A DNA stretch of 64,000 nt from an uncultured Alphaproteobacteria bacterium (GCA_913041535.1 CAJWJK010000002.1:138793-202792); one strand, 5' to 3'; shown: positions 30,406-54,106, numbered from the stretch's first letter. Notes: generated from the letters alone by a model not told the origin. A program made the numbers and translations.

Positions 30406-31284
30406 ATGCCACGTTTGATGTTGACTTTACATAAATTTGCGGCGGCCAAGCTCAACTTGTACTTGCACGTGGTTGGTCGAAACCACGATGGCTACCATGA
30501 AATTGACAGTTTGGTGGTCTGGCTAGATGTGGGCGATAAACTTACTTTTTCGCTCGCAGATGATCTAAAGCTAGAGGTTAGCGGACCGTTTGCAAACGAA
30601 GTAGGCCCCAAAGAAGATAATCTAGTAGTACAGGCTGCAGAATACCTTCGTAAGTCCTGTTCAATAAGATTAGGAGCAAAGATTCATCTTGATAAGCAAT
30701 TGCCCGTAGGTGCAGGTATGGGTGGGGGCTCTTCCGATGCAGCAGCTGCGCTTCGGGCTCTCATGGAGCTATGGAAATGCGATCCAGGGGAGTTAAACAT
30801 GGATGCTCTTGTACGCTCGCTCGGTGCCGATGTGCCAGCTTGTATGATTGGTGCTCCGGCGCTAGTGAGTGGTGTGGGAGAAAGAGTCGTCCGATTACCA
30901 GAGTTGCCTATAATGCATGTTGTATTAGTTTGGCCAGGTGTCAAACTGGCAACATCGAGGGTGTTTGCTGCGCACCAAGTTAAGGACTCAAATAAACCAC
31001 TACGAATCAGTGACCTAGAGAGACGTGACAATTATCTAAAAGCACTATTGGATCGCAGCAATAATCTGCAAATTACTGCTCAGGGGCTATGTTCCGAAAT
31101 TGGCAAGGCATTGCAACTTCTAGCTTCTACAAAAGGTTGTGTTTTATCACGCATGAGCGGGAGCGGCTCAGCCTGTTTTGGTCTTTTTGAAACCAAGGAA
31201 GAGGCTCAAGGTGCAGCACTTTATATTTTGAAAAAGCGTCCTAGTTGGTGGGTAAGGGCTACACGACTTCGGAGTGAGACTTGA
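30406..31284 (+). CDS. ispE: 4-diphosphocytidyl-2-C-methyl-D-erythritol kinase
   Basis: AKLNLYLHVVGRNHDGYHEI is the N-terminal motif. PVGAGMGGGSSDAAAAL is the GHMP kinase ATP-binding motif. Confidence 0.9.
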   Translation: MPRLMLTLHKFAAAKLNLYLHVVGRNHDGYHEIDSLVVWLDVGDKLTFSLADDLKLEVSGPFANEVGPKEDNLVVQAAEYLRKSCSIRLGAKIHLDKQLPVGAGMGGGSSDAAAALRALMELWKCDPGELNMDALVRSLGADVPACMIGAPALVSGVGERVVRLPELPIMHVVLVWPGVKLATSRVFAAHQVKDSNKPLRISDLERRDNYLKALLDRSNNLQITAQGLCSEIGKALQLLASTKGCVLSRMSGSGSACFGLFETKEEAQGAALYILKKRPSWWVRATRLRSET

Positions 31285-32114
31285 TGGTGATTAAGGCACT
31301 CAGTACCGTACAATCGGTTAAATCGTTGCAAACAGTATCAGTGGTTCTTGGGCTGTTCCTATGTCTCTCTACACTATTGGGCTGTGGGCTGTCTGGAGAA
31401 CGTGGCGCGGATCTTGAACGTACGTTTGACCATGCAGTTATTGCCATACCAGCCACACGTTACACCGGTGTTGTGGTTGGAACTATCAAAGATTTTTCTG
31501 CTCTCAATGCAGAGGCACGTAAGTACCCTATAGTACTCTACATTCACGGTTGTACCGGAATCGGCAACTACACGTTCATTAGGGCCCTTGCTAGGAACGG
31601 ATATGTGGTGATTGCTCCGAATAGCATGGCGCGTCGTTTTCGTCCGTTACAGTGTAATCCTCGGACCAATACTGGTGGCCATAATCTCTTTGTGTATGAC
31701 TTTCGTCGTGCAGAAATCACATATGCTCTACACAGAATGCGTCAGTATGACTGGGTGAATTGGCAGGAATTGTTTTTGGTAGGTACCAGTGAAGGAGGCG
31801 TGGCGGCTGCCTTATATCGTGGAGATGAATTTCGTGCGCGAGTGATTACTCAATGGACGTGTGTCGGAGCTCCTCTCGTGCGGGGTATTGGCGCTCCGCC
31901 GGAGACACCAATGCTTGCAATCGTTCAAGGAGAAGACCCATGGTATGACCCCGCCCGTACTACAGGACAACGAGGGGATTGCGGACTATTTATGGCTGGG
32001 CGTCCGGGGTCAAGGTCGATCATACTAAATGATGGCTCAGGTCATGATGTGTTTAAAAGCCCCGATGTTGTGCAGGAAATTCTGAGGTTTCTAGAGATAA
32101 ATCGGATGGGCTAG
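31281..32114 (+). CDS. Lipoprotein with an alpha/beta-hydrolase (dienelactone hydrolase-like) fold
   Basis: It has a signal peptide with a lipobox (LLGCG). GTSEGG is a nucleophile-elbow GxSxG motif. LYIHGCTG follows an oxyanion-like region. Its ATGA overlaps the ispE stop. Confidence 0.5.
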   Translation: MMVIKALSTVQSVKSLQTVSVVLGLFLCLSTLLGCGLSGERGADLERTFDHAVIAIPATRYTGVVVGTIKDFSALNAEARKYPIVLYIHGCTGIGNYTFIRALARNGYVVIAPNSMARRFRPLQCNPRTNTGGHNLFVYDFRRAEITYALHRMRQYDWVNWQELFLVGTSEGGVAAALYRGDEFRARVITQWTCVGAPLVRGIGAPPETPMLAIVQGEDPWYDPARTTGQRGDCGLFMAGRPGSRSIILNDGSGHDVFKSPDVVQEILRFLEINRMG

Positions 32115-32132
32115 GCTTTGTTCTCTCAAAGG

Positions 32133-32930
32133 TTAGTGTTCATTAACCACTGCACTTTTAAGATCAATCCTGATGGGTGCAATTATTGCAATCGCCTTTA
32201 ATTGGACAGGAATTAGTGGGGAGTTATTGAGGATTGATGCAAACCAAACTGAAACTGTTTCAGGGTCCTCTGTGCGGGGCAGCCAGGGCTTTGATGAAAA
32301 GCCAGCGATCCGCTCCAACGTAATGTCAATTCTTGTCGCGGGACCGTGATAAGCGGGGGTGTTCACATTTTCAATACCAATACTGTTAATCTGCAGATTG
32401 TAACGCCGCCGTCCATCGAACACTTTGAGTTCTCTCTCTAAACCAGCTGGGAGAATTGTGGTGGTAATATCGAGAGCAGCACTAAGGGGATCGATCGTCA
32501 TCCCGACGAGTTTGGGGGGCACTGAATCCCTTCCATCTTTAGCCGCGGTTGGGATTGCTGTGACTAACGGATATTGCCAATCGGAGTAATTTATTCTGAC
32601 TTTTCGGTAGGCCCCCAACCAATAATTATCGGCGCGGTGTTTCAGTGGCCTAAATTCCCTGTTCTCTACAATGCCTTCTGTGACTGCCTTAGAGGTAAAG
32701 CCAATCATGAAATCAAATAGTCCGACAGTTTTAGAATGGCTGGTTAATTTGTACCTGTCGTTAACAATGTCGGCAGTTAGAGCGAACTCATTAGCATGTA
32801 TTCCGCCAAGAAATAGGTGATAGGTCAAAAAGAATTCTTTTGCGGATGACGGTGATACGAACAGGAACAAAAAAAGGACCGTGAGACATTTTCTCGAAAA
32901 CAGACAGAAAAGAGCATTGTGATGAACCAT
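32133..32930 (-). CDS. Exported hypothetical protein
   Basis: A signal-peptide-like N-terminus (MVHHNALFCLFSRKCLTVLFLFLFVSPSSA) begins at the internal Met at 32930. The ORF-track start at 33050 adds 40 aa with no signal character. Confidence 0.4.
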   Translation of the reverse strand: MVHHNALFCLFSRKCLTVLFLFLFVSPSSAKEFFLTYHLFLGGIHANEFALTADIVNDRYKLTSHSKTVGLFDFMIGFTSKAVTEGIVENREFRPLKHRADNYWLGAYRKVRINYSDWQYPLVTAIPTAAKDGRDSVPPKLVGMTIDPLSAALDITTTILPAGLERELKVFDGRRRYNLQINSIGIENVNTPAYHGPATRIDITLERIAGFSSKPWLPRTEDPETVSVWFASILNNSPLIPVQLKAIAIIAPIRIDLKSAVVNEH

Positions 32931-33233
32931 AGCTATGCTTGGTCTATGCTGTGTGAACCCAAAGGTATTGGCGACGTGTCTTAAGAATCTACTGCGTGAT
33001 GACATAAGGCAAGGTGTTGCATAATTAACACAGAAACATTTTCCTGCCAAATATTGGTAGCAAGACGTTGCTAAACTCGACGAACAGGCTTATTAAACTT
33101 GGCAGATGTTTTGGTTTCCATGATATTTTTAGGGTTCTAGGGCATTAAATTTTTGAATTCCTGCCGAACCGCCTTGCGGTTTTTGGCAAAGGTGTTTAAT
33201 GTATCGTTGTGTTTTTGCGGGAGGTGCGCGGAG

Positions 33234-33500
33234 ATGTTGGCGAGAAAACAAATTAAGGCGCTAGCGTTAGGAGCTGCGTTAGTGATAGCACCAGCGGTCG
33301 GTTATGCACAGTCGCAGTCTGAACAGACTGGGCTGGGTAGTGCTGCGGGTCAGGAAGAAGTTGGGTTGCTGGGGGGTCTTTCGTCAGGAACTATAGCTAC
33401 TGCAGCAGTGGCGGCCGCGGTGGCCGTTGCGGTGGCAGCAGCGTTGGCTGATGACTCGGCGACTACGACGGGCGTCACGACTGGACCTCCTACGAACTAA
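33234..33500 (+). CDS. Small secreted Ala/Gly/Thr-rich protein, YjbE/GfcA-like
   Basis: The ATG at 33234 is preceded by GGGAGG. It has a signal peptide (ALALGAALVIAPAVGYA|Q) and then low-complexity A/S/T/G-rich sequence. That resembles the E. coli YjbE and GfcA threonine-rich exoproteins that head yjb and gfc operons. Confidence 0.45.
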   Translation: MLARKQIKALALGAALVIAPAVGYAQSQSEQTGLGSAAGQEEVGLLGGLSSGTIATAAVAAAVAVAVAAALADDSATTTGVTTGPPTN

Positions 33501-33560: not shown

Positions 33561-33590
33561 AAACGGCCCTTTTGGGCCGTTTGTTTATGC
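33561..33590. terminator. Intrinsic-terminator-like GC hairpin between convergent genes
   Basis: AAACGGCCC-tttt-GGGCCGTTT is followed by GTTTAT on the plus strand. It sits between the 33234..33500 gene and the stop of the minus-strand 33585..34322 gene. Confidence 0.5.
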
Positions 33591-34322
33591 GGCAGGCTTT
33601 AACACCTCAATATCAATTGGTGGATATTCTTTGACGATGTGTTGTCGGCTTTTCCAGATAAAGCCATCATATGCATCTGCCCAGTAATAGTTGTCGAAAT
33701 GCCAGCGCATGGTTTGGGCGCTGTTGCGCTCTCGGACTAGTACTGTATCGAATTTGAGTTCGAGGATGGTTATAGTGACTTTTTTTACGGTCTCAAATAC
33801 AGAGGTGATTGGCACCCCGTAACGGTTCTCAGCATCAATATCTATTGTCCGTGTGAATCGTGTGTTAGGAGATAGTTCATGTAGCTGTCCGGAGACTGGG
33901 TCGCGCACATTCATGTAAGTATTTTTGATATTGCGGGGCAATCCAGCTGTTTTGACGAGTCGGCCCTGACGTGTAACAACTGCAACACGGTCCGCTGATA
34001 CGTAATGGAGGTCTTGCCCATCGTACCGGCTGAGGACTAAAAGTGAACGCTCGCCTTTACCAATCTTTGCCAGGACAGTTGCGTATGGTAGCTTTGTTAT
34101 GTCGTCTCGATGTATAGGGATATCGGGTTTGCCAAATACAGCGTACTGCATAGCGTCGGGCAGGTTGGCTAGGACGGGGATTTTGAAAGAGTCTCCGCAT
34201 CCTGCAGCTAGCATACCTACGCCTGACAGTAAGGCCATGCGTCTCGTTAGATTAAAGTGTGAGGGGAGATAATTATGCACCGAAAATCCAAACAATGGTT
34301 GAAAGGCATTGACAAAAGCCAT
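33585..34322 (-). CDS. YjbF/GfcB-family lipoprotein (group-4-capsule-type polysaccharide lipoprotein)
   Basis: The lipobox reads MLAAGC. The conserved core ...LPYATVLAKIGKGERSLLVLSRYDGQDLHYVSADRVAVVTRQGRLVKTAGL... resembles YjbF/GfcB. The start is ambiguous between Met1 at 34322 (an RR n-region, which would overlap the divergent gene) and Met29 at 34238. Confidence 0.55.
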   Translation of the reverse strand: MAFVNAFQPLFGFSVHNYLPSHFNLTRRMALLSGVGMLAAGCGDSFKIPVLANLPDAMQYAVFGKPDIPIHRDDITKLPYATVLAKIGKGERSLLVLSRYDGQDLHYVSADRVAVVTRQGRLVKTAGLPRNIKNTYMNVRDPVSGQLHELSPNTRFTRTIDIDAENRYGVPITSVFETVKKVTITILELKFDTVLVRERNSAQTMRWHFDNYYWADAYDGFIWKSRQHIVKEYPPIDIEVLKPAA

Positions 34323-37163
34323 ATTAGCCGATGTTTGGCCGTTATGGTGATCATAATGACATTTAGTTTGGTTACCAGTTTTGGCCTAGAGGCTCAGGAA
34401 GAGTCGGGCACACTTGAAGAATTTCTAGATAAACTGGAGGATTTGCAGAAAGATAGCATCGGAATGCCTTCACTTGAGGGCGGTTCTCCTTTGGATAAAA
34501 GTAGAGAAAAGTCAATTGATAGGAGTTTGGATCGCAATTCCATTGTAGGACGTCAGCGCAATATTGAGCGAGAACAAACTCTCGGTGGCTTCACAATGCG
34601 TGAGCAGTTTCTCATCCAGAAATTCTGTGATGGCACAATTAAGGATGAAGACGTACAGGTTGTGAGATTCTTTTCGCGCTTTTCACGGCTTGAGCAGGAC
34701 TATTGTCAACGTGTAGATCACTCACTATTCCAGTTTGGCTATAACCTATTTACTCTGGAGACTGACACCTCTGATGTGTTGCAGATCGGCGCGATTGGGG
34801 ATGATTACGTAGTAGGCATTGGTGATGAGTTTATAATAAGTTTTCAAGGTCCGAATTCCCAAACAATTACTAGACGTGTTGATCGTGAAGGTAGGTTGAT
34901 ACTTCAGGACCTTGGCGCAATACCCACCGTCGGGCGAGCTTTTAGCGAAGTCCGTAAGGACATTGAGGACAGGACCGAGAGTGTTCTTCTTGGAACGACC
35001 GTAATGGTATCCATCGGGGCAGTGCGTGAGCTCTCAGTTACTGTTGCAGGGGAAGTTGTAGTGCCAGGTACGTATACGCTTTCGAGCCTGTCAACGATGA
35101 TGGATGCATTAAGCAGTGCTGGAGGAATTCGTAAAACTGGTAGTTTGAGGACAATACAGGTAAAGCGTGGTGATTTAGTATTTTGGGTAGACGTTTATGA
35201 CCTGCACTTCGGCGCCTCAATGTCCAGCGATGTTCCATTGTATGACGGTGATTATATTACTGTACCCTTGATTGGGGCTACTGTTGCTGTTTCAGGTAAT
35301 GTTATGAGACCCGGTATATATGAATTGCCAGAAGGATCCAGCACGCTGCAAATAAAAGATTTATTGGATCTATCTGGCGGTACCTTGAGGCCTCGAGGAT
35401 ACCGACTTTCTCGTATCACCTTCGATGCAATAGGTCGCCAACTGATAGTTGAACAGACCGATGATGGCGCTGATCTAACGGACGGGGATATTTTGGTTGT
35501 TAATAGGCGTGAGGATGTTCAGTTAGGCGCAGTTGAGCTGATTGGGCATGTGAAAGTCCCTGGCTGGCGTGCTCTATCCAGTGCGCAAACCGCACGGGCT
35601 TTGATTCGTGATAATAATAGCCTGGAGGACAATCCTTATTTGTTATTCGCAGTAATTGAGACTTCTGACCCTGTCACTCAGGCAAGACGCATGTTCCCAA
35701 TAAGCCTTCTTTCAATCCTTGCGTCGCGAAGGGATTTTAAATTGAGAGATGGAGATAAACTTATTGTATTGAGCAACGAAGATATTCGCTATTTGTCGTC
35801 TCGAGATGTACAAGGAATCATTAGTGTAACACATACGGGAGAGAGAATTGGTTTAGATGGCTTGGCGAAGAGAACGTCGCCACTAAGCCTAGATCGAAGA
35901 AGGCTAGCGGAGACGTTGGTTGCAAATGCCCAGAAAAAACAGGATGTAAATCGTGAATCTACCTCAGACTCAGATGGTAATAGTGACAAGATAGGCGGTG
36001 ATGAGTGTGAAGGCCGTAAAAGGCTTGCGGCACTGGTTGCCCAATCACGACCCGGGCGCTTTGCAAGTGCGGTTCGTGCGGTGGGTTCTAGTCCTAATCA
36101 AAAAGACTTTGTTGATATGGAATGTCCTGCGATATTTCATAACTACCCCGACCTTCTTCCTCTCGCACTTGAACACGTCGCCTCAGTTAATGGAGAAGTG
36201 CGAATTCCAGGGCCTTATCCGGTACTACCAGAAACATCTCTTTCCCATATTCTGTCCGTAGTTGGTGGTACAACGAGAGCTGCGGATCTGGCAAGAGTAG
36301 AAATTCAACGGGGCTCTGGTTCAGGACGGTCAACAAGAGACGTAATAGATTTAGCTAGAGTTGAAACACGTAATGTCTCTTTGGGGCCTGGCGATTCTAT
36401 TAGATTTAGCCAAGTATTCACCGATCGTGATAATGGTCCAGTAGAAATCACCGGAGAAGTTGCGAAGCCAGGTTTCTACCATATTCGTCGCGGGGAAAGG
36501 CTTTCAGAACTTGTTGCAAGGGCTGGTGGCATGACACCGCAAGCCTACCCCTTAGGGGCTATATTCACCCGCGATCGTGTTCGGCAGGCACAACAAATTG
36601 GCTATGAGAGAGCTGCTCGAGAGCTAAACGCCTCTTTGGCTATAGCGGCGGCTCAAGAGGAGGTGAACCCTGTTGCGCTATCACAGGTCTTTGAAATGTT
36701 GTCTGAGCTAAATACGGTTCAGGCACTTGGTCGGGTGGTAATTGAAGCTGATCCAACTGTTCTCCAAGTAAGACCTGAATTAGATAGTGTTTTAGAGCCC
36801 GGGGATAAACTTTTTGTTCCTAAACGCCCCAGTTCCGTCCTTGTCATTGGTGATGTATTAAGTCCAGGAGCACTCCAGTTTATTTCAGGGACGAAGGTAG
36901 ACCAGTATATTAGACAAGCGGGAGGTTTCCAGAGGTCAGCTGATGAGGATCGGGTTTTTTTAGTTTATCCAAACGGGGAGGCGCAACCGGTTGCAGTTAG
37001 TGTCTGGAACTACACACCAGTTCAGGTTCCGCCTGGCAGCACGATCGTTGTGCCGAAGGATCCGGCTCCACTCAACATATTCCAAATAACTAAGGAATTT
37101 GCGCAAGTTGTAAGTCAGCTAGCCATAACTGCCGCGTCCCTAGCGGTGATTGGTAACAATTAA
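34275..37163 (+). CDS. Giant outer-membrane polysaccharide export (OPX) protein, Wza/GfcE-like, with a Poly_export domain and multiple SLBB domains
   Basis: 962 aa. The start is supported by GAGGGGAG. It has a signal sequence and a Poly_export-like segment (IGDEFIISFQGPNSQTITRRVDREGRLILQDLGAIPTVG). Four or five beta-grasp SLBB-like repeats follow (G-V-PG-Y-L...L..AGG). The C-terminal amphipathic helix LNIFQITKEFAQVVSQLAITAASLAVIG resembles the Wza outer-membrane helix. Confidence 0.7.
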   Translation: MHRKSKQWLKGIDKSHISRCLAVMVIIMTFSLVTSFGLEAQEESGTLEEFLDKLEDLQKDSIGMPSLEGGSPLDKSREKSIDRSLDRNSIVGRQRNIEREQTLGGFTMREQFLIQKFCDGTIKDEDVQVVRFFSRFSRLEQDYCQRVDHSLFQFGYNLFTLETDTSDVLQIGAIGDDYVVGIGDEFIISFQGPNSQTITRRVDREGRLILQDLGAIPTVGRAFSEVRKDIEDRTESVLLGTTVMVSIGAVRELSVTVAGEVVVPGTYTLSSLSTMMDALSSAGGIRKTGSLRTIQVKRGDLVFWVDVYDLHFGASMSSDVPLYDGDYITVPLIGATVAVSGNVMRPGIYELPEGSSTLQIKDLLDLSGGTLRPRGYRLSRITFDAIGRQLIVEQTDDGADLTDGDILVVNRREDVQLGAVELIGHVKVPGWRALSSAQTARALIRDNNSLEDNPYLLFAVIETSDPVTQARRMFPISLLSILASRRDFKLRDGDKLIVLSNEDIRYLSSRDVQGIISVTHTGERIGLDGLAKRTSPLSLDRRRLAETLVANAQKKQDVNRESTSDSDGNSDKIGGDECEGRKRLAALVAQSRPGRFASAVRAVGSSPNQKDFVDMECPAIFHNYPDLLPLALEHVASVNGEVRIPGPYPVLPETSLSHILSVVGGTTRAADLARVEIQRGSGSGRSTRDVIDLARVETRNVSLGPGDSIRFSQVFTDRDNGPVEITGEVAKPGFYHIRRGERLSELVARAGGMTPQAYPLGAIFTRDRVRQAQQIGYERAARELNASLAIAAAQEEVNPVALSQVFEMLSELNTVQALGRVVIEADPTVLQVRPELDSVLEPGDKLFVPKRPSSVLVIGDVLSPGALQFISGTKVDQYIRQAGGFQRSADEDRVFLVYPNGEAQPVAVSVWNYTPVQVPPGSTIVVPKDPAPLNIFQITKEFAQVVSQLAITAASLAVIGNN

Positions 37164-40128
37164 TCCGCATAACGACGGCAAGAGAGCTAGAAGAATGTGC
37201 GTGATTGTAAAACACGCTTTTCAAGTATTCCTGATAGTAGTTCTAGGAATTGGCGTGCTCAGGCTAACTTCTGTGGCGTCAGCGGAAGAGTTCTATATTC
37301 CATCGGTCAACAATTTTGGCGGTGTTGGCCTTATGATGACGAGGACTGCGCGTTTTGGAGCTGATGGAGAATTTGCAATCGGGTTCTCGGAGATAGATCC
37401 GTATCGGCGATATTTTATCACAGTTCAAGCTCTGCCATGGCTTGAGGCCACATTTCGCTACTCTGATCTAACAAAGATCCCCTTGGGAGGAGATACTTTT
37501 AAGGATCGGGGTGCGGACCTCAAATTTAAGTTATTGAACGAACAGAAGTACATACCAGCAGTAGCATTAGGCCTACAGGATGGTATTGGCACGGGCTTGT
37601 TTGATGGAGAATATATTGTCGCAAGTAAGAGGTATATGGATTTAGATTTCTCTCTAGGTATTGGATGGGGCTATCTGGGTACTCGCGGTGATATCAAGAA
37701 CCCATTGAGTCTTGTAACAACTTATTTTGATAACAGAGATGCAAATTCTGGTCGTGGCGGTAAATTTAATCCCGCTAATTACTTCTCTGGCAAGAGAGCG
37801 TCTCTTTTTGGGGGAGTGGAGTATTTCACACCTATTGATGGGTTGACCCTCAAAGTAGAGTACGAAGGCAATGATTATTCTGATGAGCCCCGTACAGAGT
37901 TTGGCAACAAAGTAGCTGTTGCAACATCGCCAATAAACTTTGGCATAAATTATAGACCGTTCTCGTGGCTTGATATCGCTGCTGGCCGTGAGCGGGGTTA
38001 TGAAGGTGTGGTCCGTATGGCTATGAGAGCAAACTTCCACACATCTAAAACACCGAAGTTTGATCTACCTCCCGTGCCTTTAAAATCTCGTATGGCAGTC
38101 AAACAGAAAGCAGCGCATGATTCTCTACCAGCCATCGAGGATGTTACGTCAACGCTGAATGATGACTTTGCGATAATAGGACTTAACGTAGATTCTGTTG
38201 AGTTTACCAATCAGAAGGTATTTGTGCGTGTATCGGATGTTATAGACCGTGTGTCGGATTCGGAATTGATACGGGCAGCGCATAGCGCATCGAACGCTTT
38301 TAGCGATGCCGTATCGTCCGTAACTATAATAGGGTCTGATTCGCTTGATGGTATAGAAACGGTTTCATATACAGCATCGGAGCTAACGCAGTTTCAAATT
38401 GTCGATTACTTATTTGATGATCTGGATAAATATGGAGTAGAGGCAGTTGAGTTATCTCACACTGAAGCACAGGTATATCTTAACTCTAGCCTCTCTCGAG
38501 TAGAACAGGAGAAGGCGGCGCTGGCAGTTGTCACAGTCGCCCCTACGCCCTTAGAAAAGGTCACATTTGTCAATATTTCGGACGATCAGGTGTTTAATCG
38601 TTTAACTATATCACGAAAGGAGATCACCAGATCATCACTTGTGAATCAGATGTTTGATGGACTTGAGGAGATGGGATTCTCTGTTGAGGCCGTAGACGTT
38701 TCAGAGGGCGCGGCTACCGTGACTGTTATGTCTAAAACAAATGTTAGCGCGGAGGTGTATCGTCGCGCAGCATGGATTGTTGCTGATTCGGTTGTCTCTT
38801 CAGTCGAAGAGGTAACACTTGTCGGACTGGAAAATGGCCGTGAGATAGAACGTATAACTGTGTTAGCGAGCAGTGACAGCTATGTTGGAGTTAATTCAGG
38901 TAGTAGCGTCATAGACGTATCTAGCATTGAATCTGCGGATGATATCTTTGACGAACTAGCCCAACAGGGTGCACAGGTTGATGCGTTACACTTTACACCT
39001 ACTCGCGCTACGGTATTTGTCACTCCGACCCGTTTTCGGGAGGCAGCACGAAATATTGGGCGGCCGGCTAGGGTTATAGCAAACAGCGCTCCTGCTACGG
39101 TTGAGCAAATATCAATCGTTACTATGGCCGATGGTATGCCCATTAACCATGTAACATTAATGCGCCGTGATCTTGAACGGGCTGTTTCTCGTGAGGGCAG
39201 TGTTGAAGAGTTATGGAAGCAGGCGGAAATGAATGGTGGAGCTGAAGTTCCACAAACTTCCGTGGTCCCGGCGCAAAGATACCCATCATTTAATTGGAGT
39301 TTAACGCCGAATACTCGACAGTACATACATGATGAGGCTCAATTCCTACTGTATCAGTTATTTGCAAGGCTAAATGGAACTCTTGAATATAGTAGGGGGT
39401 TGAGTTTCGAGGGCACCTTATTTGCTAATCTCTATAATAACTTTGAAAAGGCCAGCACAGATTCAAATAGTCTGTTACCAAGGGTACGTAGTGAAATTGT
39501 TAAGTATCTTCAAGGTACGGATAACAAGATCCTTCGGCTTACTGCAAACTATCGTTTTTCGCCAAAGACTGATGTTTATGCACGTGTCTCAGGTGGCATT
39601 TACGAAGAAATGTTTGGGGGCATTGGCGCGGAGGTGCTTTATAGGCCCTTCGGATCACGTTGGGCTATTGGAGCTGATGTTAACCGAGTAAAACAGCGTG
39701 ATTTCCAAGGGGGGTTTGGGTTCTTCGATTATGAAGTAACGACCGGACATGCAAATATCCACTATCAGTTGCCCGTTTATGACATGTCTGCTGCGGTGTA
39801 TCTTGGCCAGTACTTAGCAGGTGATAGAGGCGCTTCATATTTTGTTTGGCGAAATTTTGAAAATGGTATGTCCGTTGGGGGATGGGTGACGCTAACTAAT
39901 GTTCCAGCGAATGTCTTCGGGGAAGGAAGTTTTGATAAGGGGTTTTTCATTCGGATACCGTTCGACGTATTTCTTATGAAATCAACACGAAAGTCCGGTG
40001 TCTTTTCTTTCCAGCCCTTATCGCGGGACGGGGGTCAAATATTGTTAGGCAGCAAACAGCTCTACGAGCTTACTCGAAGTGGAAGTCTTGGTGAACTTTC
40101 TCGAGATTGGGGCTTGGTATTACACTAG
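37150..40128 (+). CDS. YjbH/GfcD-family outer-membrane protein with an internal insertion of four tandem modules
   Basis: 992 aa. The N-terminus (...FYIPSVNNFGGVGLMMTRTARFGADGEFAIGFSEIDPYRRYFITVQALPWLEATFRYSDL...KDRGADLKFKLL...PAVALGLQDGIGTGLFDGEYIVASKRY...GIGWGYLG) matches the YjbH family. The C-terminus is rich in aromatic and Gly residues, consistent with a beta-barrel. The middle region holds four modules of about 87 aa. Confidence 0.7.
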   Translation: MVTINPHNDGKRARRMCVIVKHAFQVFLIVVLGIGVLRLTSVASAEEFYIPSVNNFGGVGLMMTRTARFGADGEFAIGFSEIDPYRRYFITVQALPWLEATFRYSDLTKIPLGGDTFKDRGADLKFKLLNEQKYIPAVALGLQDGIGTGLFDGEYIVASKRYMDLDFSLGIGWGYLGTRGDIKNPLSLVTTYFDNRDANSGRGGKFNPANYFSGKRASLFGGVEYFTPIDGLTLKVEYEGNDYSDEPRTEFGNKVAVATSPINFGINYRPFSWLDIAAGRERGYEGVVRMAMRANFHTSKTPKFDLPPVPLKSRMAVKQKAAHDSLPAIEDVTSTLNDDFAIIGLNVDSVEFTNQKVFVRVSDVIDRVSDSELIRAAHSASNAFSDAVSSVTIIGSDSLDGIETVSYTASELTQFQIVDYLFDDLDKYGVEAVELSHTEAQVYLNSSLSRVEQEKAALAVVTVAPTPLEKVTFVNISDDQVFNRLTISRKEITRSSLVNQMFDGLEEMGFSVEAVDVSEGAATVTVMSKTNVSAEVYRRAAWIVADSVVSSVEEVTLVGLENGREIERITVLASSDSYVGVNSGSSVIDVSSIESADDIFDELAQQGAQVDALHFTPTRATVFVTPTRFREAARNIGRPARVIANSAPATVEQISIVTMADGMPINHVTLMRRDLERAVSREGSVEELWKQAEMNGGAEVPQTSVVPAQRYPSFNWSLTPNTRQYIHDEAQFLLYQLFARLNGTLEYSRGLSFEGTLFANLYNNFEKASTDSNSLLPRVRSEIVKYLQGTDNKILRLTANYRFSPKTDVYARVSGGIYEEMFGGIGAEVLYRPFGSRWAIGADVNRVKQRDFQGGFGFFDYEVTTGHANIHYQLPVYDMSAAVYLGQYLAGDRGASYFVWRNFENGMSVGGWVTLTNVPANVFGEGSFDKGFFIRIPFDVFLMKSTRKSGVFSFQPLSRDGGQILLGSKQLYELTRSGSLGELSRDWGLVLH

Positions 40129-40130: not shown

Positions 40131-41282
40131 TTAAGAAGGACGAGACAAACTCTCGTAGACTTTCTGATACATTTCGACAACGTTATTAATAGAGTAGTGT
40201 TCGGTGGCCCGTTGTCGCGCTAATCTTCCCAGGTGGTTCTGATTTTTGCGGATTTTCTCAAGTAGTTTTAGGCAGGCGTTTGCCATGAGTTTAGGGTCCC
40301 TGGGGGGGACTGAAAACCCAGTTGTATCCACGATTTGTCGAGAATCGCCAACGTCAGTAGTAACGCAAGGTACCCCAGATGCCATTGCTTCAACTAGTAC
40401 ATTTGGAAAGGCCTCTCCGTGCGAGGATGCGACAGCAACGATGTCCAATGCAGACATTATCTTGGGCATATCATTTCGGATGCCAAGTAGGGAGACTCGA
40501 TCTTCAAGGTGGTATTTATATACCCAATCCTTCAGTTGTTGGTTTTTAAAAGAGATGTTTTCCCCACAAAAGAGATAACGCACGCTATCGTGCTGTCGGG
40601 ACATAATTTCTGCTGAGCTAAGAAAACCTTCGTGATCTTTCTGTGAGTGAAAACGCCCAATTAATCCTATCAGTGGCTGTTCAGGCCCTATGCCAAGTTG
40701 AAGGCGCATACGTTCTCTAGAAGCTAGGTCAGGTTTAAACTTCTCTATATCTACACCGTTAGGAATTATTTTAAACTTGTTAGACGGGTAACCAAGTTCT
40801 ACATGAATGTCTCGCGCAGTTTCTGAATTACATATGATCTTTTGTGGTACCCAACGGGATAGTAATGCACAAGTCCGTGCAGTGAGTATGGTGCTGCGCT
40901 TATCAGTCTTGGGGTTTAAATCAGCATGTCGGATATTCCAAACTATATTGTTCTGGCGTGCTAAGCGGCCAGCTATACCCCCAACGAGATCCGCGTGATA
41001 TAGCCATGTTTGTACCACATCGGGTTTTTGTTTTCTGATGTGGTTTACTAGTTTACTTACGCTTAATGCGGCGGCGGGACCGTGGCTCATATTTAAGGCA
41101 TTCACTGACATTCCTAGTTCTTGAAACCTTCTTCCTAATGTATTGAGGTCGTTTAAAGAGGTAACGCTCTGCTGGTATTTGAAAGGATCAAGGCGCTCGA
41201 GAAGATGAGAGAGCATCGTTTGGGCGCCGCCAATTGGGAGGCCGGTAATGACGTGATGAATTTTTTGGGGCCTTAAGCGCAT
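40131..41282 (-). CDS. Glycosyltransferase family 4 (GT-B)
   Basis: 383 aa. The C-terminal EAFPNVLVEAMASGVPCVTTDVG is an E-x7-E-like GT4 motif. Confidence 0.8.
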   Translation of the reverse strand: MRLRPQKIHHVITGLPIGGAQTMLSHLLERLDPFKYQQSVTSLNDLNTLGRRFQELGMSVNALNMSHGPAAALSVSKLVNHIRKQKPDVVQTWLYHADLVGGIAGRLARQNNIVWNIRHADLNPKTDKRSTILTARTCALLSRWVPQKIICNSETARDIHVELGYPSNKFKIIPNGVDIEKFKPDLASRERMRLQLGIGPEQPLIGLIGRFHSQKDHEGFLSSAEIMSRQHDSVRYLFCGENISFKNQQLKDWVYKYHLEDRVSLLGIRNDMPKIMSALDIVAVASSHGEAFPNVLVEAMASGVPCVTTDVGDSRQIVDTTGFSVPPRDPKLMANACLKLLEKIRKNQNHLGRLARQRATEHYSINNVVEMYQKVYESLSRPS

Positions 41283-41384
41283 TGGCGAACCGTTTGTATG
41301 TTTGTCTGGTTGAGTAATTTAACTATATTGGCACTCTGTAGATTGTTTGTTAATGCATACTTTGGAGGTTACTACCGTTATACC

Positions 41385-42347
41385 ATGCAGCGCTCAAATC
41401 CCAACCTAGGAAGTCAGCCGGTTGAACAGGTCGTTCGTGCTGACGATGTAATAGACCTAAGGTACCTGTTCAGAAGCTGGTGGAGGGGAAGCTGGTTTAT
41501 TATTTTAGCTGCGTTGGCAGGCTTGGCGGTCGGTCTATGGGAGATGACGAAATTTCAACCTATGTATACTGCAGTTATGTTGGTATCTCCGGCTGGTGGA
41601 ACTGACGGAGGTGGTCCCGATTTAAGCGGATTAAAAAGTTTTGCGGCGGTTTTTGGAGTTGGCGGTAGCAGCGGGACCGAAGGTGGTACGGGTAGCTCGT
41701 TCGATCGTTTCGAAGTCCTTCTTGGATCTGTAATTTTGGCTGAACGGCTGCAAGAACGGTATGGTTTGCTCCAGACTGTGTACCGAGGTGCGTGGGATCC
41801 TGATGCACAGGACTGGATCCGGCCGTCGGGCACGCGGTTTGAGCGGAATGAGGCGTTGAGAGAATTCTTCAAGCTTCGAACGTGGAAGGCGCCCAGTATC
41901 TCGTCTCTTGCCCGGTTTATAGGATCAACTGTAAGAGTTGTCACACTTCAGGCAAATGGATTCCGTCAAGTCTCTGTTGTGCATGAGGATCCTCAGTTTG
42001 CAGAGTATTTATTGAGAACTGTCTATTATGAAGCAGATGAGCTTTTACGTGAGCTAGACCAAGAGAGTACGAGGACCCAGAAGCAATACCTTGAGAATAA
42101 AATAGCGACTAGCAAGATCGTTGAGATTCGTACCGGCCTAGTAGGCCTACTGATGCAACAAGAGAATAAGGCAATGCTTTTGCAAAGTGATGCGCCATAC
42201 GCCGCATACATCATTCAGCCGATTAGCGTAGGTAACAGGCCAACGGCGCCAAGCCCGCGGATGTATGCAGGAGCAGGTGTTGCGGTCGGGGCATTTATAG
42301 GACTTTTAGTTGTTTCATTCATATCGATGTTTCGTCGCGAGACTTAA
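41385..42347 (+). CDS. Wzz-like polysaccharide co-polymerase / chain-length determinant (PCP without a kinase domain)
   Basis: The N-terminus IDLRYLFRSWWRGSWFIILAALAGLAVGLW is the Wzz motif plus TM1. A coiled periplasmic region follows. The C-terminus is Pro-rich and carries TM2 (PISVGNRPTAPSP...GVAVGAFIGLLVVSFI). An alternative start is the TTG at 41298. Confidence 0.55.
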   Translation: MQRSNPNLGSQPVEQVVRADDVIDLRYLFRSWWRGSWFIILAALAGLAVGLWEMTKFQPMYTAVMLVSPAGGTDGGGPDLSGLKSFAAVFGVGGSSGTEGGTGSSFDRFEVLLGSVILAERLQERYGLLQTVYRGAWDPDAQDWIRPSGTRFERNEALREFFKLRTWKAPSISSLARFIGSTVRVVTLQANGFRQVSVVHEDPQFAEYLLRTVYYEADELLRELDQESTRTQKQYLENKIATSKIVEIRTGLVGLLMQQENKAMLLQSDAPYAAYIIQPISVGNRPTAPSPRMYAGAGVAVGAFIGLLVVSFISMFRRET

Positions 42348-42371
42348 GGTGACGGTCTACTGGTCCACCCC

Positions 42372-43484
42372 ATGACCTTTAGTTGGAGTATCTTCTTTGT
42401 TTTTCTTTTTCTGTATCGCTGCTTTGTATCCATCATTGCACAATCATCAGTGCAAGAGCTCGGTGATGCTAGTCTGTATCAGCGTGGCGGACGAACTGTG
42501 GGATCAGGGTTTTCGGCCTTGCTTTACGAGGGTCAATCCTTCAATGTGTCAGCCTTTCGGCACATAGGAACGCATGTTACTGAATCGATAGGTACTTTAT
42601 TAAGTATAGCCGGTGGTGGTAATGCGTACCTCACCAATTTGGGTTTTCAAACAATAGCGTTTGTGGGCTTGGTTAAACTGTTGATGTCAGTCGAGCCAAG
42701 CATTCGTCGTTGGTTAGCTCTCGTTTTGATTCTGCCGTCATTTAACTTCTGGACATCAATAGCTTCGAAAGAGGCATTGGTGACGCTCTGCATTTGCATG
42801 ATACTCGCGAACTATGTTCGTATGCAAAAACTTCAGAAGGTTAGAATTATTTCATTAGCAATATTCTCTATCCTTCTCGCTCTTTTGAAACCTCACTATT
42901 TTATTGCCGTAGCTTATCTTTTCGGCGCGACAGTCTTAGCACAAAGGTTTCGGCAGCGTGGAGTTGTGGCTTTATCTGCTGCAGTGATGTCTTTAGCCAT
43001 GTTATACCCAATTGCTACGTTTTTAGATAAGCAAGCTCGCGTAATTGCTACCCACTTCAGAGTTAGTGATAATACTCTTACTAGAGAAATCTATTTTGTA
43101 CATGAGCTGGATATCCTTTTTAAGGCGCCATACGGAATGTTTCAAAGTTTCTTTGGTCCAACAGTGTCCGAGGCTGTTTCAGGTACTCTCGCGATGATGT
43201 CTTTCATCGAAAGCTTATTTCTTGTGGGACTTCTGTTGATGATGATATTGCATCGATTTTGGGATATTCGAGCATTTGAAGCAATTATTGGCTCCGTTAC
43301 GTTGTTTTGGATTTTATTTGTCACTTATCCATTTGGGATTATGAATCCTGGTTCAGCGGTGAGGTACCGGTCGGGGTATCTAGTGCTAGTAGTGTTTGTG
43401 GTTATTTTTGTCTTTGTCCGAGGATTCAATGAGCGTGAAAAGACCACGAGGAGTAGCATGAAAACACCTGCTCTTGCTGAGTGA
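42372..43484 (+). CDS. Polytopic membrane protein, candidate polysaccharide polymerase (Wzy/EpsG-like)
   Basis: 370 aa with about 9 or 10 predicted transmembrane segments. It has no nucleotide-binding motif. It lies between the Wzz-like gene and the glycosyltransferases. The assignment is by context only. Confidence 0.35.
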   Translation: MTFSWSIFFVFLFLYRCFVSIIAQSSVQELGDASLYQRGGRTVGSGFSALLYEGQSFNVSAFRHIGTHVTESIGTLLSIAGGGNAYLTNLGFQTIAFVGLVKLLMSVEPSIRRWLALVLILPSFNFWTSIASKEALVTLCICMILANYVRMQKLQKVRIISLAIFSILLALLKPHYFIAVAYLFGATVLAQRFRQRGVVALSAAVMSLAMLYPIATFLDKQARVIATHFRVSDNTLTREIYFVHELDILFKAPYGMFQSFFGPTVSEAVSGTLAMMSFIESLFLVGLLLMMILHRFWDIRAFEAIIGSVTLFWILFVTYPFGIMNPGSAVRYRSGYLVLVVFVVIFVFVRGFNEREKTTRSSMKTPALAE

Positions 43485-43525
43485 TAGATGACGTGTAACT
43501 CCTAGTCTGTGGGCATTGGTGCATT

Positions 43526-44284: not shown

Positions 44285-44317
44285 AATGCGGTGTGAACAT
44301 CCTGCCGTGCATATTAG

Positions 44318-45397: not shown

Positions 45398-45422
45398 GCG
45401 TGACAGCGAGTTTGGATTCTTT

Positions 45423-46169: not shown

Positions 46170-46174
46170 CGGCC

Positions 46175-47311: not shown

Positions 47312-47364
47312 GGTCTTCTAGCTCAAATGTTATTGGCTGTTCGGTTGCTATACGGAACTAGTGC

Positions 47365-48054: not shown

Positions 48055-48096
48055 TATCGTGGAAGGAATATCTGTTTTGGAACGGTTGATTGTGTA

Positions 48097-51182: not shown

Positions 51183-52973
51183 CTAAGGGAGCTTACCAGC
51201 CATCGCTTTAAATGACTCACTATTGCTGACAAGGTACTCGTAACTACCAGTTGCAACTATGCGACCACCTTCAATGATGTGAATAGCATCACTAAATTGA
51301 ACGGTATGAAGACGGTGTGCGATAGTAACGGTTGTTATTGTACCGGCTAAATCTCTAATAGTTTCAGTGACGATACTTTCAGTCACATTGTCCAGTGAAC
51401 TCGTAGCTTCATCCAGAACTAGAAGCTGCGGTCGGCGGTAGAGTGCACGGGCAATGGCTAGGCGTTGCAATTGTCCGCCACTGAAACGAACACCGCTCTC
51501 ACCGAGTCGTGTGTCATAACCATCTGGTAGGTCCCCAACAATAAAATCATGGATATGCGCTTTCTTTGCTGCTTCAATAACTGAACTGGTATCAATCTCA
51601 TCATAGGAGACAGCAAAAGCAATGTTCTGTGTGATACTATCGTCGAGGTAATGTACGTGCTGGGGCACATAAGCTACTTGTTGCTGCCATGCCCGAAGAT
51701 TTTCGTGTGTGAGAATCACATCATCTATAAGGACCTTTCCATTTGTGGGTACCAATAACCCCATTATGGTTTCGACCAGCGTAGATTTCCCTGCGCCCGT
51801 CGCTCCCACAAAGGCTATGCTGCTGCCTTTTTCGACAACTAAACTAATGTTATCGATAACATCTGTGTCTTCGCTGGGATAGTGGTATGACACTTGGTCA
51901 AGGGTAATCTCTTTAAAGAAAGGCAGGGGTGGAGGAGGTTGCTGATCGGTAGTAACGGGCGCTGTAGCTGCGCTACTAAATTCTTCCACCAAACTTTTTG
52001 CCACGGCATAAGATGTCCGCATTTGACTAATCGATTGGAATAGTTGGGAGAGAAGTGGGATTAGCCTATACCCAGCCATCGCGAATAAGGCAATAATTGC
52101 AATGCTATCTGACGAGCGGCCCTCTGAATCTAAGGTCGATAGCACCACCGCTAGCAGCCCTACAAACACGACTGTTTCGATCAGGTAGCGAGGTAGCTGC
52201 GCAATCAAGACTTTGCCAATTCCGATACGCGACAATCGTTTAGCAGCCATCCAAAAAAGGTTGGAGAAGTAATTTTCCCCGCCTTGAAGTTTAAGTTCCT
52301 TAATACCTCTAAATGCCTCATCTGTAGTCCGAAATGCTTGCTCCGTGGCAATGCGACCCTGATGACCTAACCAGGTTGAACGATAGCGAATCAATAAATA
52401 GATACAGACGTAGATGCTTCCTAAGCTTAGTACTGCAAGTCCTGTTACCATGGGTTCTTGCCATAGGAGAAACGCCAATATTGCAATTACGGTCAAGGCG
52501 TTTGAGAACACCATGATACCAGCAACCAAGTAACCAGATGTGAGCTGGGCTACCTCCACTAGGAGATTCTTGCGAAGTTCCCCTGTGTTGAGGGTAAGAA
52601 ACGCCTCATAACGTTGTTCTAGATAATGGCGCATACGTCGGTACGACAGGCGGTGTATCATCGTCTGTGCAAAATAGGTGCGAAAAAACAATGATGCTGC
52701 ACCTACAATATTTCGGAAAATGATCACAAAAATTAGTCCCAACCCGCTGTATGTTAGAAAATCTGTGTCACTCGAACTCCCCAAAGTTTCGCGGGCCTGC
52801 GATAATATTTGCGAACTACTTATTAGTGATGGATCTGCAACAATGCGGACGTAGGCGACAATTGAGCCGATGCCTGCCACTTCAGCAGCCGATAAGACAA
52901 TTGCCAAAAATAGAACCCATATAGCTAGCCAACGGTCCTGTCTTGATAATATTTTAAGGAGTTTTACTAACAA
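51183..52973 (-). CDS. ABC exporter with a fused permease and ATPase (MsbA/PglK/NdvA-like type I exporter)
   Basis: 596 aa with a six-helix N-terminal transmembrane domain. The nucleotide-binding domain carries Walker A GATGAGKST, signature FSGGQLQR and Walker B LLVLDEATS. Confidence 0.85.
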   Translation of the reverse strand: MLVKLLKILSRQDRWLAIWVLFLAIVLSAAEVAGIGSIVAYVRIVADPSLISSSQILSQARETLGSSSDTDFLTYSGLGLIFVIIFRNIVGAASLFFRTYFAQTMIHRLSYRRMRHYLEQRYEAFLTLNTGELRKNLLVEVAQLTSGYLVAGIMVFSNALTVIAILAFLLWQEPMVTGLAVLSLGSIYVCIYLLIRYRSTWLGHQGRIATEQAFRTTDEAFRGIKELKLQGGENYFSNLFWMAAKRLSRIGIGKVLIAQLPRYLIETVVFVGLLAVVLSTLDSEGRSSDSIAIIALFAMAGYRLIPLLSQLFQSISQMRTSYAVAKSLVEEFSSAATAPVTTDQQPPPPLPFFKEITLDQVSYHYPSEDTDVIDNISLVVEKGSSIAFVGATGAGKSTLVETIMGLLVPTNGKVLIDDVILTHENLRAWQQQVAYVPQHVHYLDDSITQNIAFAVSYDEIDTSSVIEAAKKAHIHDFIVGDLPDGYDTRLGESGVRFSGGQLQRLAIARALYRRPQLLVLDEATSSLDNVTESIVTETIRDLAGTITTVTIAHRLHTVQFSDAIHIIEGGRIVATGSYEYLVSNSESFKAMAGKLP

Positions 52974-52994
52974 AGCCGGGTATTTATTTCATTT

Positions 52995-54098: not shown

Positions 54099-54106
54099 AG
54101 AGAGAC

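Follow-up and report, generated by a model that had tools for sequence, protein, structure and literature searches.

A KpsD-like Class 2 OPX protein with a built-in GfcC-like module in an alphaproteobacterial polysaccharide locus

Is a 962-residue OPX protein with a long series of β-grasp repeats a departure from the known exporters, and could it span the periplasm without a co-polymerase partner? The question is raised by a 64,000-nucleotide stretch of DNA from an uncultured Alphaproteobacteria bacterium, referred to here as the window, in which a sequence-only reading had placed such a protein at 34275..37163 (+ strand) and set it apart from the canonical exporter Wza. We find that the reading frame is real and codes for 962 aa, and that its product is an ordinary member of an already described exporter class, the KpsD-like Class 2. 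Its architecture is not new: what had been taken for an oddity is the published Class 2 (KpsD-type) layout (PMC9603273). Homologues of 850–1000 aa are common in Alphaproteobacteria, with at least 599 homologous clusters carrying the same Pfam set.

The domain content of the protein, its homology to KpsD, Wza and GfcC, and its conserved synteny frame an explanation to which we give a probability of about 0.72, namely that it would be an expanded KpsD-type conduit, with a KpsE-like polysaccharide co-polymerase (PCP) at its base and with docking to YjbF and YjbH.

Domain layout of the OPX protein

The OPX gene is preceded by a Shine-Dalgarno-like GAGGGGAG lying 8–15 nt 5' of the ATG, and is identified by its open reading frame, its Pfam Poly_export and SLBB matches and its hhalign match to Escherichia coli KpsD. 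Scanned whole, the protein matches Pfam SLBB (3e-41, in five stretches), SLBB_2 (6e-32), Poly_export (aa 176–247, 7.7e-8) and Caps_syn_GfcC_C (aa 864–929, 1e-10). Conservation was read from 80 homologues (alignment A1), and an AlphaFold2 model of the monomer reached a pTM of 0.50.

Residues 1–41 (34275..34397) read, from hydropathy and sequence, as a Sec-type signal peptide with a basic n-region, a hydrophobic core at aa 15–41 and a probable cleavage site, placed by eye, after LEA. No L-x-x-C lipobox follows the core in the protein sequence; the sole N-terminal cysteine, Cys20, precedes the core and is kept in 1 of the 80 homologues. A helical region follows (aa 44–174, 34404..34796), modelled by AlphaFold2 with helices at 47–60, 72–102, 108–119, 124–131 and 138–147; a Pfam scan of this region gave no family match, and its Cys118/Cys144 pair is retained in 60/80 homologues.

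The Poly_export segment proposed earlier is present at aa 175–250 (34797..35024) and is equivalent to Wza D1, matching PF02563 on the segment with 5.8e-9 (36.5 bits against a 28-bit cut-off). Two SLBB modules come next (aa 251–333 and 334–415, 35025..35519; Pfam SLBB/SLBB_2), which phmmer aligns with Wza D2–D3, and then a divergent third β-grasp module (aa 416–523, 35520..35843), which has no match in a Pfam scan, aligns with the first SLBB module in hhalign (96.9%, E 1.3e-10) and is modelled with pLDDT above 90. Beyond the linker region lie a fourth module (aa 634–718, 36174..36428; SLBB 1.3e-6) and a GfcC/YjbG-like module (36429..37064) identified by Pfam, hhalign and a phmmer match to GfcC (PDB 3P42). 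This last consists of a fifth β-grasp domain (aa 719–852) with an inserted helical hairpin and a sixth (aa 853–930), both of which match SLBB segment-wise and also, respectively, Caps_syn_GfcC_N (PF20616, 1.4e-4) and Caps_syn_GfcC_C (PF06251, 5.8e-12).

The β-grasp repeats had thus been recognized correctly, although their number is six rather than four or five, because five pass Pfam and the divergent module is found by hhalign. The motif G-x-V-x-x-PG-x-Y, by which they had been recognized, is strict at aa 259, 341, 640 and 727 and loose at 859. Foldseek searches of the PDB returned Wza, GfcC, a Class 3 OPX and poly-ubiquitin-like repeats, confirming that the modules have the β-grasp fold.

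Between the third and fourth modules (35844..36173), a low-complexity linker (aa ~523–575) and a small helical segment (579–633) are delimited by pLDDT below 50 (at 523–539 and 554–574) and by the homologue alignment. The acidic Ser/Asp-rich stretch noted earlier, STSDSDGNSDKIGGDECEG, occupies aa 561–579 in the region that AlphaFold2 leaves disordered. Across the 80 homologues the linker is as short as 4 and as long as 111 residues, and Cys578 and Cys617, which bracket the helical segment, occur in all 80.

Class assignment and the C-terminal helix

By sequence and by fold, the best PDB matches of the protein are Wza (2J58) and GfcC (3P42), the two comparators already suggested by the sequence-only reading. 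The 80-homologue profile matches Wza residues 64–266 (E 1e-24), and phmmer places the 2J58 match at aa 199–357 and the 3P42 match at aa 777–924, the GfcC-like C-terminal region being separate from the Wza-like one, as in Class 2. The archetype of that class, E. coli KpsD, aligns in hhalign with 99.4% probability (E 4.7e-21) over 475 columns that include the terminal helix, pairing OPX residues 150–956 with KpsD 65–555 of 558. Four β-grasp modules (three by Pfam, one by hhalign) stand between Poly_export and the GfcC module, within the 1–6 SLBB domains of Class 2B proteins, whose median length is 824 aa (Saidi et al. 2022, PMC9603273). SPI signal peptides without lipidation are typical of Class 2B (83% of members; PMC9603273), as is read here from hydropathy. 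Class 1 (Wza-type) membership was considered and rejected: the protein has no L-x-x-C for acylation, it carries a GfcC module, no Wza_C similarity was found in it, and no kinase or phosphatase domain turned up in a scan of 49 of the 51 window ORFs of at least 150 aa.

The helix at the C terminus (aa 936–960, 37080..37154) is modelled by AlphaFold2 over 25 residues with pLDDT 51–57. Its first half is moderately amphipathic (hydrophobic moment 0.4–0.47) and its last 14 residues are hydrophobic; the final 13, SQLAITAASLAVI, are nearly invariant across homologues that are 38–64% identical overall. Aligned to GfcC, it runs 12 residues past the GfcC end. An amphipathic helix of Wza type had been proposed here, of which the helix and its amphipathic first half stand and the likeness to Wza does not: a Pfam scan for Wza_C (PF18412) found no match, and profile comparison of the helix with Wza and GfcE yielded neither similarity nor alignment. 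The last 113 aa, in turn, match the KpsD terminus (hhalign 96.7%), with the helix by itself giving a weak match (E 0.03). On these profile comparisons, the helix is KpsD/GfcC-like rather than Wza_C-like.

Saidi et al. separate Class 2B from 2A by a helix beyond GfcC D4 with Wza_C homology over at least 10 of 34 residues in HHpred. As no Wza_C similarity was detected in the helix described here, that definition does not formally place the protein in 2B; within Class 2, 2B is nevertheless the most likely assignment.

Hydropathy of the helix would also fit a stop-transfer anchor that tethers the protein to the inner membrane, with the β-grasp array in the periplasm, as 19-residue windows from aa 941–942 have a Kyte-Doolittle mean of 1.5–1.65, the usual transmembrane threshold. 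We regard this as very improbable, given that the helix is homologous to the surface-exposed KpsD terminus, that its N-terminal half is amphipathic and charged, and that the flanking genes encode outer-membrane proteins.

Neighbouring genes and the route of the polymer

Upstream of and divergent from the OPX gene lies a YjbF/GfcB-family lipoprotein gene (33585..34238, − strand; PF11102, 3.8e-46), with a probable start at Met29 and a lipobox LAAG-C. The gene directly downstream (37150..40128, + strand), which had been read as Wzz-like, matches PF06082 with 2.5e-206, and its Wzz identity was rejected: it encodes a YjbH/GfcD-family double β-barrel outer-membrane protein that aligns with E. coli YjbH and GfcD over the full length (hhalign, E ~1e-117), with a probable start at Met16 (nt 37195) and a middle module repeated fourfold. 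In related loci, yjbF is directly upstream of the OPX gene in 37 of 75 and yjbH directly downstream in 61 of 73; nearby yjbH is missing in some, for example in Inquilinus and in loci L003 and L040–L043. Neither the window nor 83 related loci yielded a free-standing yjbG/GfcC gene, the module being confined in them to the OPX C terminus. OPX residues 717–950, within the last ~245, align with the whole of mature GfcC (hhalign 96.6%) and with YjbG (98.0%). The conserved unit is yjbF, an OPX gene with the GfcC module built in, and yjbH. A small secreted ORF at 33234..33500 (+ strand), described from composition and signal peptide only, has an Ala/Gly/Thr-rich tail like that of YjbE/GfcA; a family search gave no match, and it is possibly, on weak grounds, their counterpart.

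YjbF and YjbH are most likely the working partners of the OPX protein. A GfcB–GfcC heterodimer (KD near 100 nM) binds GfcD (PMC8592465). This homology of the GfcC module, together with the very tight OPX–yjbH synteny, lends itself to a composite translocon, modelled on Class 3 OPX proteins that use a separate β-barrel, in which the OPX ring would stop below the outer membrane and the polymer would leave via the C-terminal barrel of YjbH, with the OPX helix packed on the last β-grasp domain (compare the GfcC D4 helix) or plugging YjbH. GfcD/YjbH is similar to the PgaA porin in its C-terminal half, and a possible pairing of Class 2 OPX proteins with barrels of this sort was put forward by Saidi et al. 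(PMC9603273); a specific protein contact is suggested by the small-residue face of the helix, which is nearly invariant, and the failure to detect Wza_C similarity points the same way. Against this, KpsD, with a homologous helix, works without a barrel gene in its cluster and has a surface-exposed C terminus, as a tag there is detectable on the cell surface (PMC11041684). Furthermore, a helix of 25 residues with a 14-residue hydrophobic end is long enough for the outer-membrane core (estimated at ~1.5 Å per residue), the modelled role of the GfcD C-terminal barrel is that of a lateral gate for lipid-anchored chains and not of an open pore, and yjbH is missing from the neighbourhood in some family members. 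We hold barrel exit to be possible but less likely, and lean towards the route proposed for KpsD, a pore formed by the C-terminal helices, in which case YjbF/YjbH would be an accessory complex for anchoring.

The Wzz-domain gene lies two genes downstream of the OPX gene (41298..42347, + strand) and encodes a kinase-less polysaccharide co-polymerase of 349 aa. Its Pfam Wzz match (2.6e-5, 24.9 bits) falls just below the 25.5-bit cut-off; two transmembrane helices (aa 64–86 and 321–347) are predicted, with no cytoplasmic domain. In hhalign it matches KpsE, modestly, at 82.7% (E 9e-6), against 34% for Wzc and 24% for WzzB, and is best matched to the KpsE type (PCP-3). In 14 of 83 related loci, a homologue is found no more than 10 kb from the OPX gene.

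A PCP partner for the OPX protein therefore exists in the cluster, which speaks against the earlier proposal that a long β-grasp stack spans the periplasm alone. In favour of that model is size, as Poly_export and six β-grasp modules would, if linearly stacked, reach roughly twice the height of Wza with its three periplasmic rings (an estimate from the Wza structure), and also that no tyrosine-kinase domain was found in the ORFs scanned. Yet the two halves are joined by a disordered linker and need not form a rigid linear stack, and KpsE is required in KpsD-type systems (PMC11041684). PCP-1 and PCP-3 proteins ordinarily lack a kinase, and the KpsE class is not known to have one; the missing kinase accordingly gives no support to PCP-free spanning. 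With the adjacent gene now identified as yjbH, we consider this model improbable, if less so than the stop-transfer anchor.

Next to the co-polymerase gene, 42372..43484 (+ strand) encodes a polytopic membrane protein, recognized by its many hydrophobic segments, without a match in Pfam or NCBIfam and without detected similarity to the WbbH or WcaD polymerases; in 10 related loci its gene accompanies that of the PCP. Only one candidate for an inner-membrane exporter was found in the cluster, a fused TMD-NBD ABC exporter (51183..52973, − strand; ABC_membrane and ABC_tran), PglK/HepA/MsbA-like by NCBIfam (PglK 3.8e-94, MsbA, HepA; all below curated cut-offs). It is of a different fold class from KpsM/KpsT, and as no transporter of that type lies in the window, the KpsE/KpsD analogy is incomplete on the inner-membrane side.

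In the preferred reading, an expanded KpsD-type conduit, the OPX protein would be exported by Sec, its signal peptide cleaved, and would remain unlipidated. By analogy with Wza and with KpsD, for which AlphaFold2 predicts an octamer (PMC11041684), protomers would form a ring, probably an octamer, whose Poly_export and six β-grasp rings would enclose a periplasmic conduit, with the protein probably located at the outer membrane. At its base, the conduit would take the polymer, which the cluster suggests to be sulfated and methylated, from the kinase-less co-polymerase, itself probably cooperating with the ABC exporter and the polytopic protein. The built-in GfcC/YjbG module with its conserved terminal helix would form the top, replacing the free-standing YjbG/GfcC of enterobacteria, and is most likely where the conduit docks with the lipoprotein YjbF and the double β-barrel YjbH.

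Comparison with known systems

Compared with Wza and GfcE, the protein described here matches Wza D1–D3 through Poly_export and SLBB modules 1 and 2 (profile E 1e-24; Foldseek E 2e-14), whereas it adds four further β-grasp modules, has neither lipobox nor Wza_C match, and is encoded in a window without a Wzc-type kinase co-polymerase or a Wzb phosphatase. Class 3 systems (Myxococcus xanthus WzaB/WzpB) share the pairing of an OPX gene with an outer-membrane β-barrel gene (PMC12819527, PMC9601211) and may offer a parallel for the passage of the polymer across the outer membrane. Class 3 OPX proteins are, however, short, with a median of 256 aa; they are often lipidated and devoid of both GfcC module and terminal helix, and their barrels are PgaA-like single barrels, unlike the YjbH double barrel.

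A similar gene set surrounds WbfF (annotated kpsD) in the K-antigen loci of Vibrio parahaemolyticus and V. cholerae O139, where homologues of YjbF and YjbH and a Wzz-type gene without a kinase accompany a KpsD-like OPX in one capsule locus and deletion of wbfF changes K-antigen processing (PMC2987987, PMC7829505). The likeness drawn here to WbfF is one of gene content, and those loci retain a separate yjbG, which the loci of the present family do not. As yjbG does in E. coli, the OPX gene sits between yjbF and yjbH homologues, and its C-terminal part has the two β-grasp domains, helical hairpin and terminal helix of GfcC/YjbG, except that the module is part of a larger protein and not a free periplasmic protein of 250 aa, and that its longer helix ends in a hydrophobic, nearly invariant stretch.

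The closest parallel is KpsD. At 558 aa it is shorter by ~400 residues, which correspond to the third and fourth β-grasp modules, the disordered linker and the disulfide-bracketed helical segment; the OPX protein also has an additional 130-aa helical N-terminal extension. On either side of the OPX gene stand yjbF and yjbH, genes absent from kps clusters, and a PglK/HepA-like ABC exporter gene is present in its cluster in place of KpsMT, KpsC and KpsS genes. Both proteins nevertheless combine Poly_export, SLBB modules, a GfcC-like module and a C-terminal helix with a Q-L-A core, both have a Sec/SPI signal without a lipid anchor, and both are encoded near a KpsE-like co-polymerase gene.

The OPX gene and its domain layout

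The open reading frame (ORF) at 34275-37163 (+) translates into 962 residues, as proposed by the sequence-only reading, which took the product for a giant Wza-like polysaccharide export (OPX) protein. A Shine–Dalgarno sequence (GAGGGGAG) lies 8-15 nt 5' of its ATG, and the N-terminus carries a basic n-region and a hydrophobic core. We chose Met1 as the start because it alone provides the basic n-region together with the Shine–Dalgarno sequence, and rejected Met28, the start in the Tara gene call (935 aa). Sequence and hydropathy revealed no lipobox at the N-terminus, and the single early cysteine is not conserved in the homologue alignment, so the protein is exported but not acylated, whereas Wza is acylated. 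The gene is genuine and well supported. An identical gene is known from Tara Oceans, and homologues make up at least 599 protein clusters; almost all of the best 120 are 850-1000 aa long with an identical Pfam set. A gene fusion or assembly artefact was rejected, as the full-length architecture recurs in hundreds of independent clusters and on long contigs.

Searched as a whole, the protein matches the Pfam families SLBB (3e-41, five stretches), SLBB_2 (6e-32), Poly_export (aa 176-247), Caps_syn_GfcC_C (aa 864-929) and, more weakly, Caps_syn_GfcC_N. An AlphaFold2 monomer model built with 80 homologues as input (mean pLDDT 83.7, pTM 0.50) divides the chain into a signal peptide (aa 1-41), a helical N-terminal region (47-170), Poly_export (175-250), three β-rich modules (251-333, 334-415 and 416-523), a disordered stretch (about 523-575), a small helical segment (579-633), three further β-rich modules (634-718, 719-852 and 853-930), the middle one of which includes a helical hairpin (767-814), and a terminal helix (936-960). 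A segment-by-segment Pfam scan confirmed Poly_export and five SLBB modules, and placed GfcC_N on 719-852 and GfcC_C on 853-930. Module 416-523 had no match in that scan and matches SLBB1 in profile–profile comparison (96.9%, E 1e-10), which brings the β-grasp modules to six. The expected count of four or five falls one short of the whole. Foldseek searches of the model against the PDB returned Wza, GfcC and Class-3 OPX proteins, followed by poly-ubiquitin and USP7 UBL arrays, which is the signature of β-grasp repeats; together with Pfam, they bear out the predicted Poly_export segment followed by repeated β-grasp modules. The anticipated G-x-V-x-x-PG-x-Y motif occurs four times in strict and once in loose form, and the disordered region likewise contains the acidic Ser/Asp stretch (aa 561-579).

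Neither the N-terminal helical region nor the linker segment showed similarity in hhalign comparisons to the rest of the protein, GfcE, GfcC or YjbG, and weak PDB profile matches to Skp/OmpH (E about 0.5) were taken as chance. Cys118 and Cys144 in the N-terminal helical region are kept in 60 of 80 homologues. Cys578 and Cys617 (window 36006-36125) are invariant in 80/80 and bracket the helical segment that follows the linker, so a disulfide between them is likely.

A conserved unit with yjbF and yjbH

The next gene downstream, which had been expected to encode a Wzz-like protein, belongs instead to the YjbH/GfcD family of double β-barrels (37150-40128 (+); PF06082, 2.5e-206) and its product is homologous to E. 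coli YjbH and GfcD over the full length; the ORF extends 14 nt into the OPX gene, and its likely start lies 31 nt past the OPX stop. Upstream and divergent lies a YjbF/GfcB lipoprotein gene (33585-34238 (-); PF11102, 3.8e-46; lipobox LAAG-C), and beyond it a small secreted Ala/Gly/Thr-rich ORF that resembles YjbE/GfcA by composition only.

A scan of species-representative genomes yielded 80 loci, to which three fetched separately were added; those named belong to Rhodospirillales, Sphingomonadales, Acetobacterales, Emcibacter, Kiloniellales, Iodidimonas and other Alphaproteobacteria. Where the flank sufficed, yjbH lies directly 3' of the OPX gene in 61 of 73 loci and yjbF directly 5' in 37 of 75. 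E. coli YjbG and GfcC queries match 82-83 of the large OPX ORFs in the 83 loci, and the same queries found no free-standing yjbG or gfcC gene in these loci or in the window. On these counts, the conserved unit runs from yjbF through an OPX gene that incorporates the GfcC module to yjbH. In this alphaproteobacterial subfamily, a single polypeptide combines OPX channel and GfcC/YjbG adaptor, with yjbF and yjbH alongside; the family is large and mostly uncultured, and all three components occur together in most loci. Among the cultured relatives, Telmatospirillum sp. J64-1 carries yjbF, the OPX gene and yjbH, and in Iodidimonas muriae and Roseococcus thiosulfatophilus the OPX gene is accompanied by yjbH only. 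One related locus (L005, 10001-14566) has an interrupted OPX homologue, whose match extends over 4.5 kb and whose C-terminal 162 aa lie on a separate ORF; this could reflect an insertion or a frameshift.

In E. coli, YjbH/GfcD has a single middle globular module, a predicted peptidoglycan-binding domain (PMC8346858). The homologue here is longer (992 aa vs 698), and its middle module (aa about 325-672) comprises four tandem repeats of about 80 aa each, all pairs of which match at 98% in hhalign. Among the related loci, YjbH lengths cluster at about 670-690, 780-830, 860-880 and 940-1030 aa, a stepwise pattern suggesting that the copy number of the module varies. A correlation between OPX and YjbH lengths (Spearman rho 0.29, p 0.03, 56 loci, no phylogenetic correction) was set aside as too weak to rely on, given that the length of the OPX core hardly varies.

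The probable divergent start codons of yjbF and the OPX gene are 36 bp apart (window 34238-34275; 61 bp in L001, a 61%-identical relative), so both promoters must overlap neighbouring coding sequence. Upstream of yjbF (30406-33050) lie GHMP-kinase, alpha/beta-hydrolase-like and DUF3108 genes, an order kept in L001 (6080-8614). Seven related loci have DUF3108 upstream of their OPX gene, so it may be part of the conserved unit. Upstream of 30 kb, the window holds housekeeping genes.

The co-polymerase and the polysaccharide cluster

The Wzz-domain gene lies two genes downstream of the OPX gene (41298-42347 (+)) and encodes a co-polymerase (PCP) of 349 aa with two TM helices, whose profile matches KpsE best (82.7%, E 9e-6), compared with 34% for Wzc and 24% for WzzB. 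Lack of a kinase is normal for the class of PCP that works with KpsD-type exporters. The sequence-only reading had further suggested that so long a periplasmic stack could make a co-polymerase needless; this is not supported, given the PCP gene in the cluster and a linker of variable length. Between the OPX halves, the disordered linker varies from 4 to 111 residues among homologues, and a rigid double-height stack is thus not implied. Of the 83 related loci, 14 have a PCP homologue no more than 10 kb from the OPX gene. Directly 3' of the KpsE-like gene is a 370-aa polytopic membrane ORF (42372-43484 (+)), and the two occur as a pair in 10 related loci. The ORF has no family match and no similarity to WbbH (O-antigen) or WcaD (colanic acid), and we rejected its assignment as a Wzy polymerase and gave it no other.

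The cluster at 40-56 kb encodes GT4 glycosyltransferases, sulfotransferases, methyltransferases and an ABC exporter; profile scans found neither KpsMT nor Wzx in it. The exporter, a fused TMD-NBD protein (51183-52973 (-)) that is PglK/HepA/MsbA-like with all matches below curated cut-offs, is the sole one found, and its pairing with a KpsD/KpsE-like outer part is unusual. Three sulfotransferase genes are clear (45423-46169, 50123-51061 and 52995-54098). The interval 40131-56103 also holds several methyltransferases, one of them a 675-aa FkbM-type protein, as well as three GT4 glycosyltransferases, a PIG-L deacetylase and an aminotransferase. Judged by gene content, the sulfotransferases, methyltransferases, deacetylase and aminotransferase point to a sulfated, methylated polymer containing amino sugars in this marine alphaproteobacterium. 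The enzymes encoded at 54107-58661, namely PIG-L deacetylase, class III aminotransferase, formyltransferase, CMP-sugar-type cytidylyltransferase (CTP_transf_3) and aldo-keto reductase, suggest that an unusual amino sugar, CMP-activated or N-formylated, is made.

The terminal helix, export and relation to known exporters

The C-terminal helix foreseen from the sequence is present as 25 residues, amphipathic first and then hydrophobic, but its supposed likeness to Wza was not detected: Pfam gave no Wza_C match on the 40-aa tail, and hhalign found no similarity between the helix profile and the E. coli Wza and GfcE helices. The last 13 helix residues are near-invariant among homologues that are otherwise 38-64% identical, and the chain almost always ends 2-3 residues beyond them, a pattern that fits a specific packing role. 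The main rival reading makes this helix a plug in, or a contact on, the neighbouring YjbH. By analogy with KpsD, to which the similarity extends through the terminal helix (FQITKEFAQVVSQLAITAASL in the OPX family, IEVTRGISTILYQLAVGAKVI in KpsD), we prefer a pore formed by the OPX helices.

In the Wza octamer, stacked rings form a periplasmic conduit and the D1 ring docks on the apex of Wzc (PMC9603273); KpsD is required for surface display, is predicted to be an octamer and has a surface-exposed C-terminus (PMC11041684); and a tight GfcB–GfcC heterodimer binds GfcD (PMC8592465). By homology, the OPX protein would form a ring conduit that would meet the KpsE-like co-polymerase at its base and, through the GfcC module at its top, bind YjbF and YjbH at the outer membrane. 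We tentatively put forward, at a probability of about 0.3, that this 'Rosetta stone' OPX-GfcC fusion reflects Class 2 OPX export through a composite translocon of helix and β-barrel. On this reading, the enigmatic GfcBCD/YjbFGH proteins would be a docking and exit station physically attached to the top of the OPX ring, and the four-fold, predicted peptidoglycan-binding middle module of YjbH would anchor the complex to the cell wall. Such natural single-chain OPX-GfcC constructs could serve structural work on how KpsD-type systems cross the outer membrane and on Gfc/Yjb function.

The comparison with Wza (2J58) and GfcC (3P42) advised at the outset gave matches to both, at OPX 199-357 and 777-924, respectively. 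In profile comparisons with reference genes from E. coli K-12 and CFT073, residues 717-950 span the whole of mature GfcC (96.6%) and YjbG (98.0%), terminal helix included, although the OPX helix runs 12 residues further. The family aligns with KpsD end to end (query 150-956 to KpsD 65-555 of 558; 99.4%, E 4.7e-21), and the last 113 residues alone match it at 96.7%. Compared with KpsD, the chain is enlarged by about 400 inserted residues (two β-grasp modules, the linker and the helical segment) and by a helical N-terminal extension.

Saidi et al. 2022 divide OPX proteins into three classes, of which Class 2B, typified by KpsD, has a median length of 824 aa, Sec/SPI signal peptides in most members and a share of about 11% of all OPX proteins (PMC9603273). 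The protein agrees with their definition of Class 2 in every feature checked, so its architecture is already known, and 962 aa is long but inside the described range. It is a KpsD-type, Class 2 OPX protein, probably of subclass 2B, and annotation is barely affected beyond using this name in place of a giant Wza. The mark of subclass 2B is homology to Wza_C, for which the tail gave no match. GfcD/YjbH barrels were reported near 18-19 Class 2B genes, with the suggestion that the integrated GfcC module may bind them (PMC9603273). The linkage of yjbF, the OPX gene and yjbH without a free yjbG lends that idea independent genomic support, in keeping with, and not exceeding, the published hypothesis of coupling between GfcC module and barrel.
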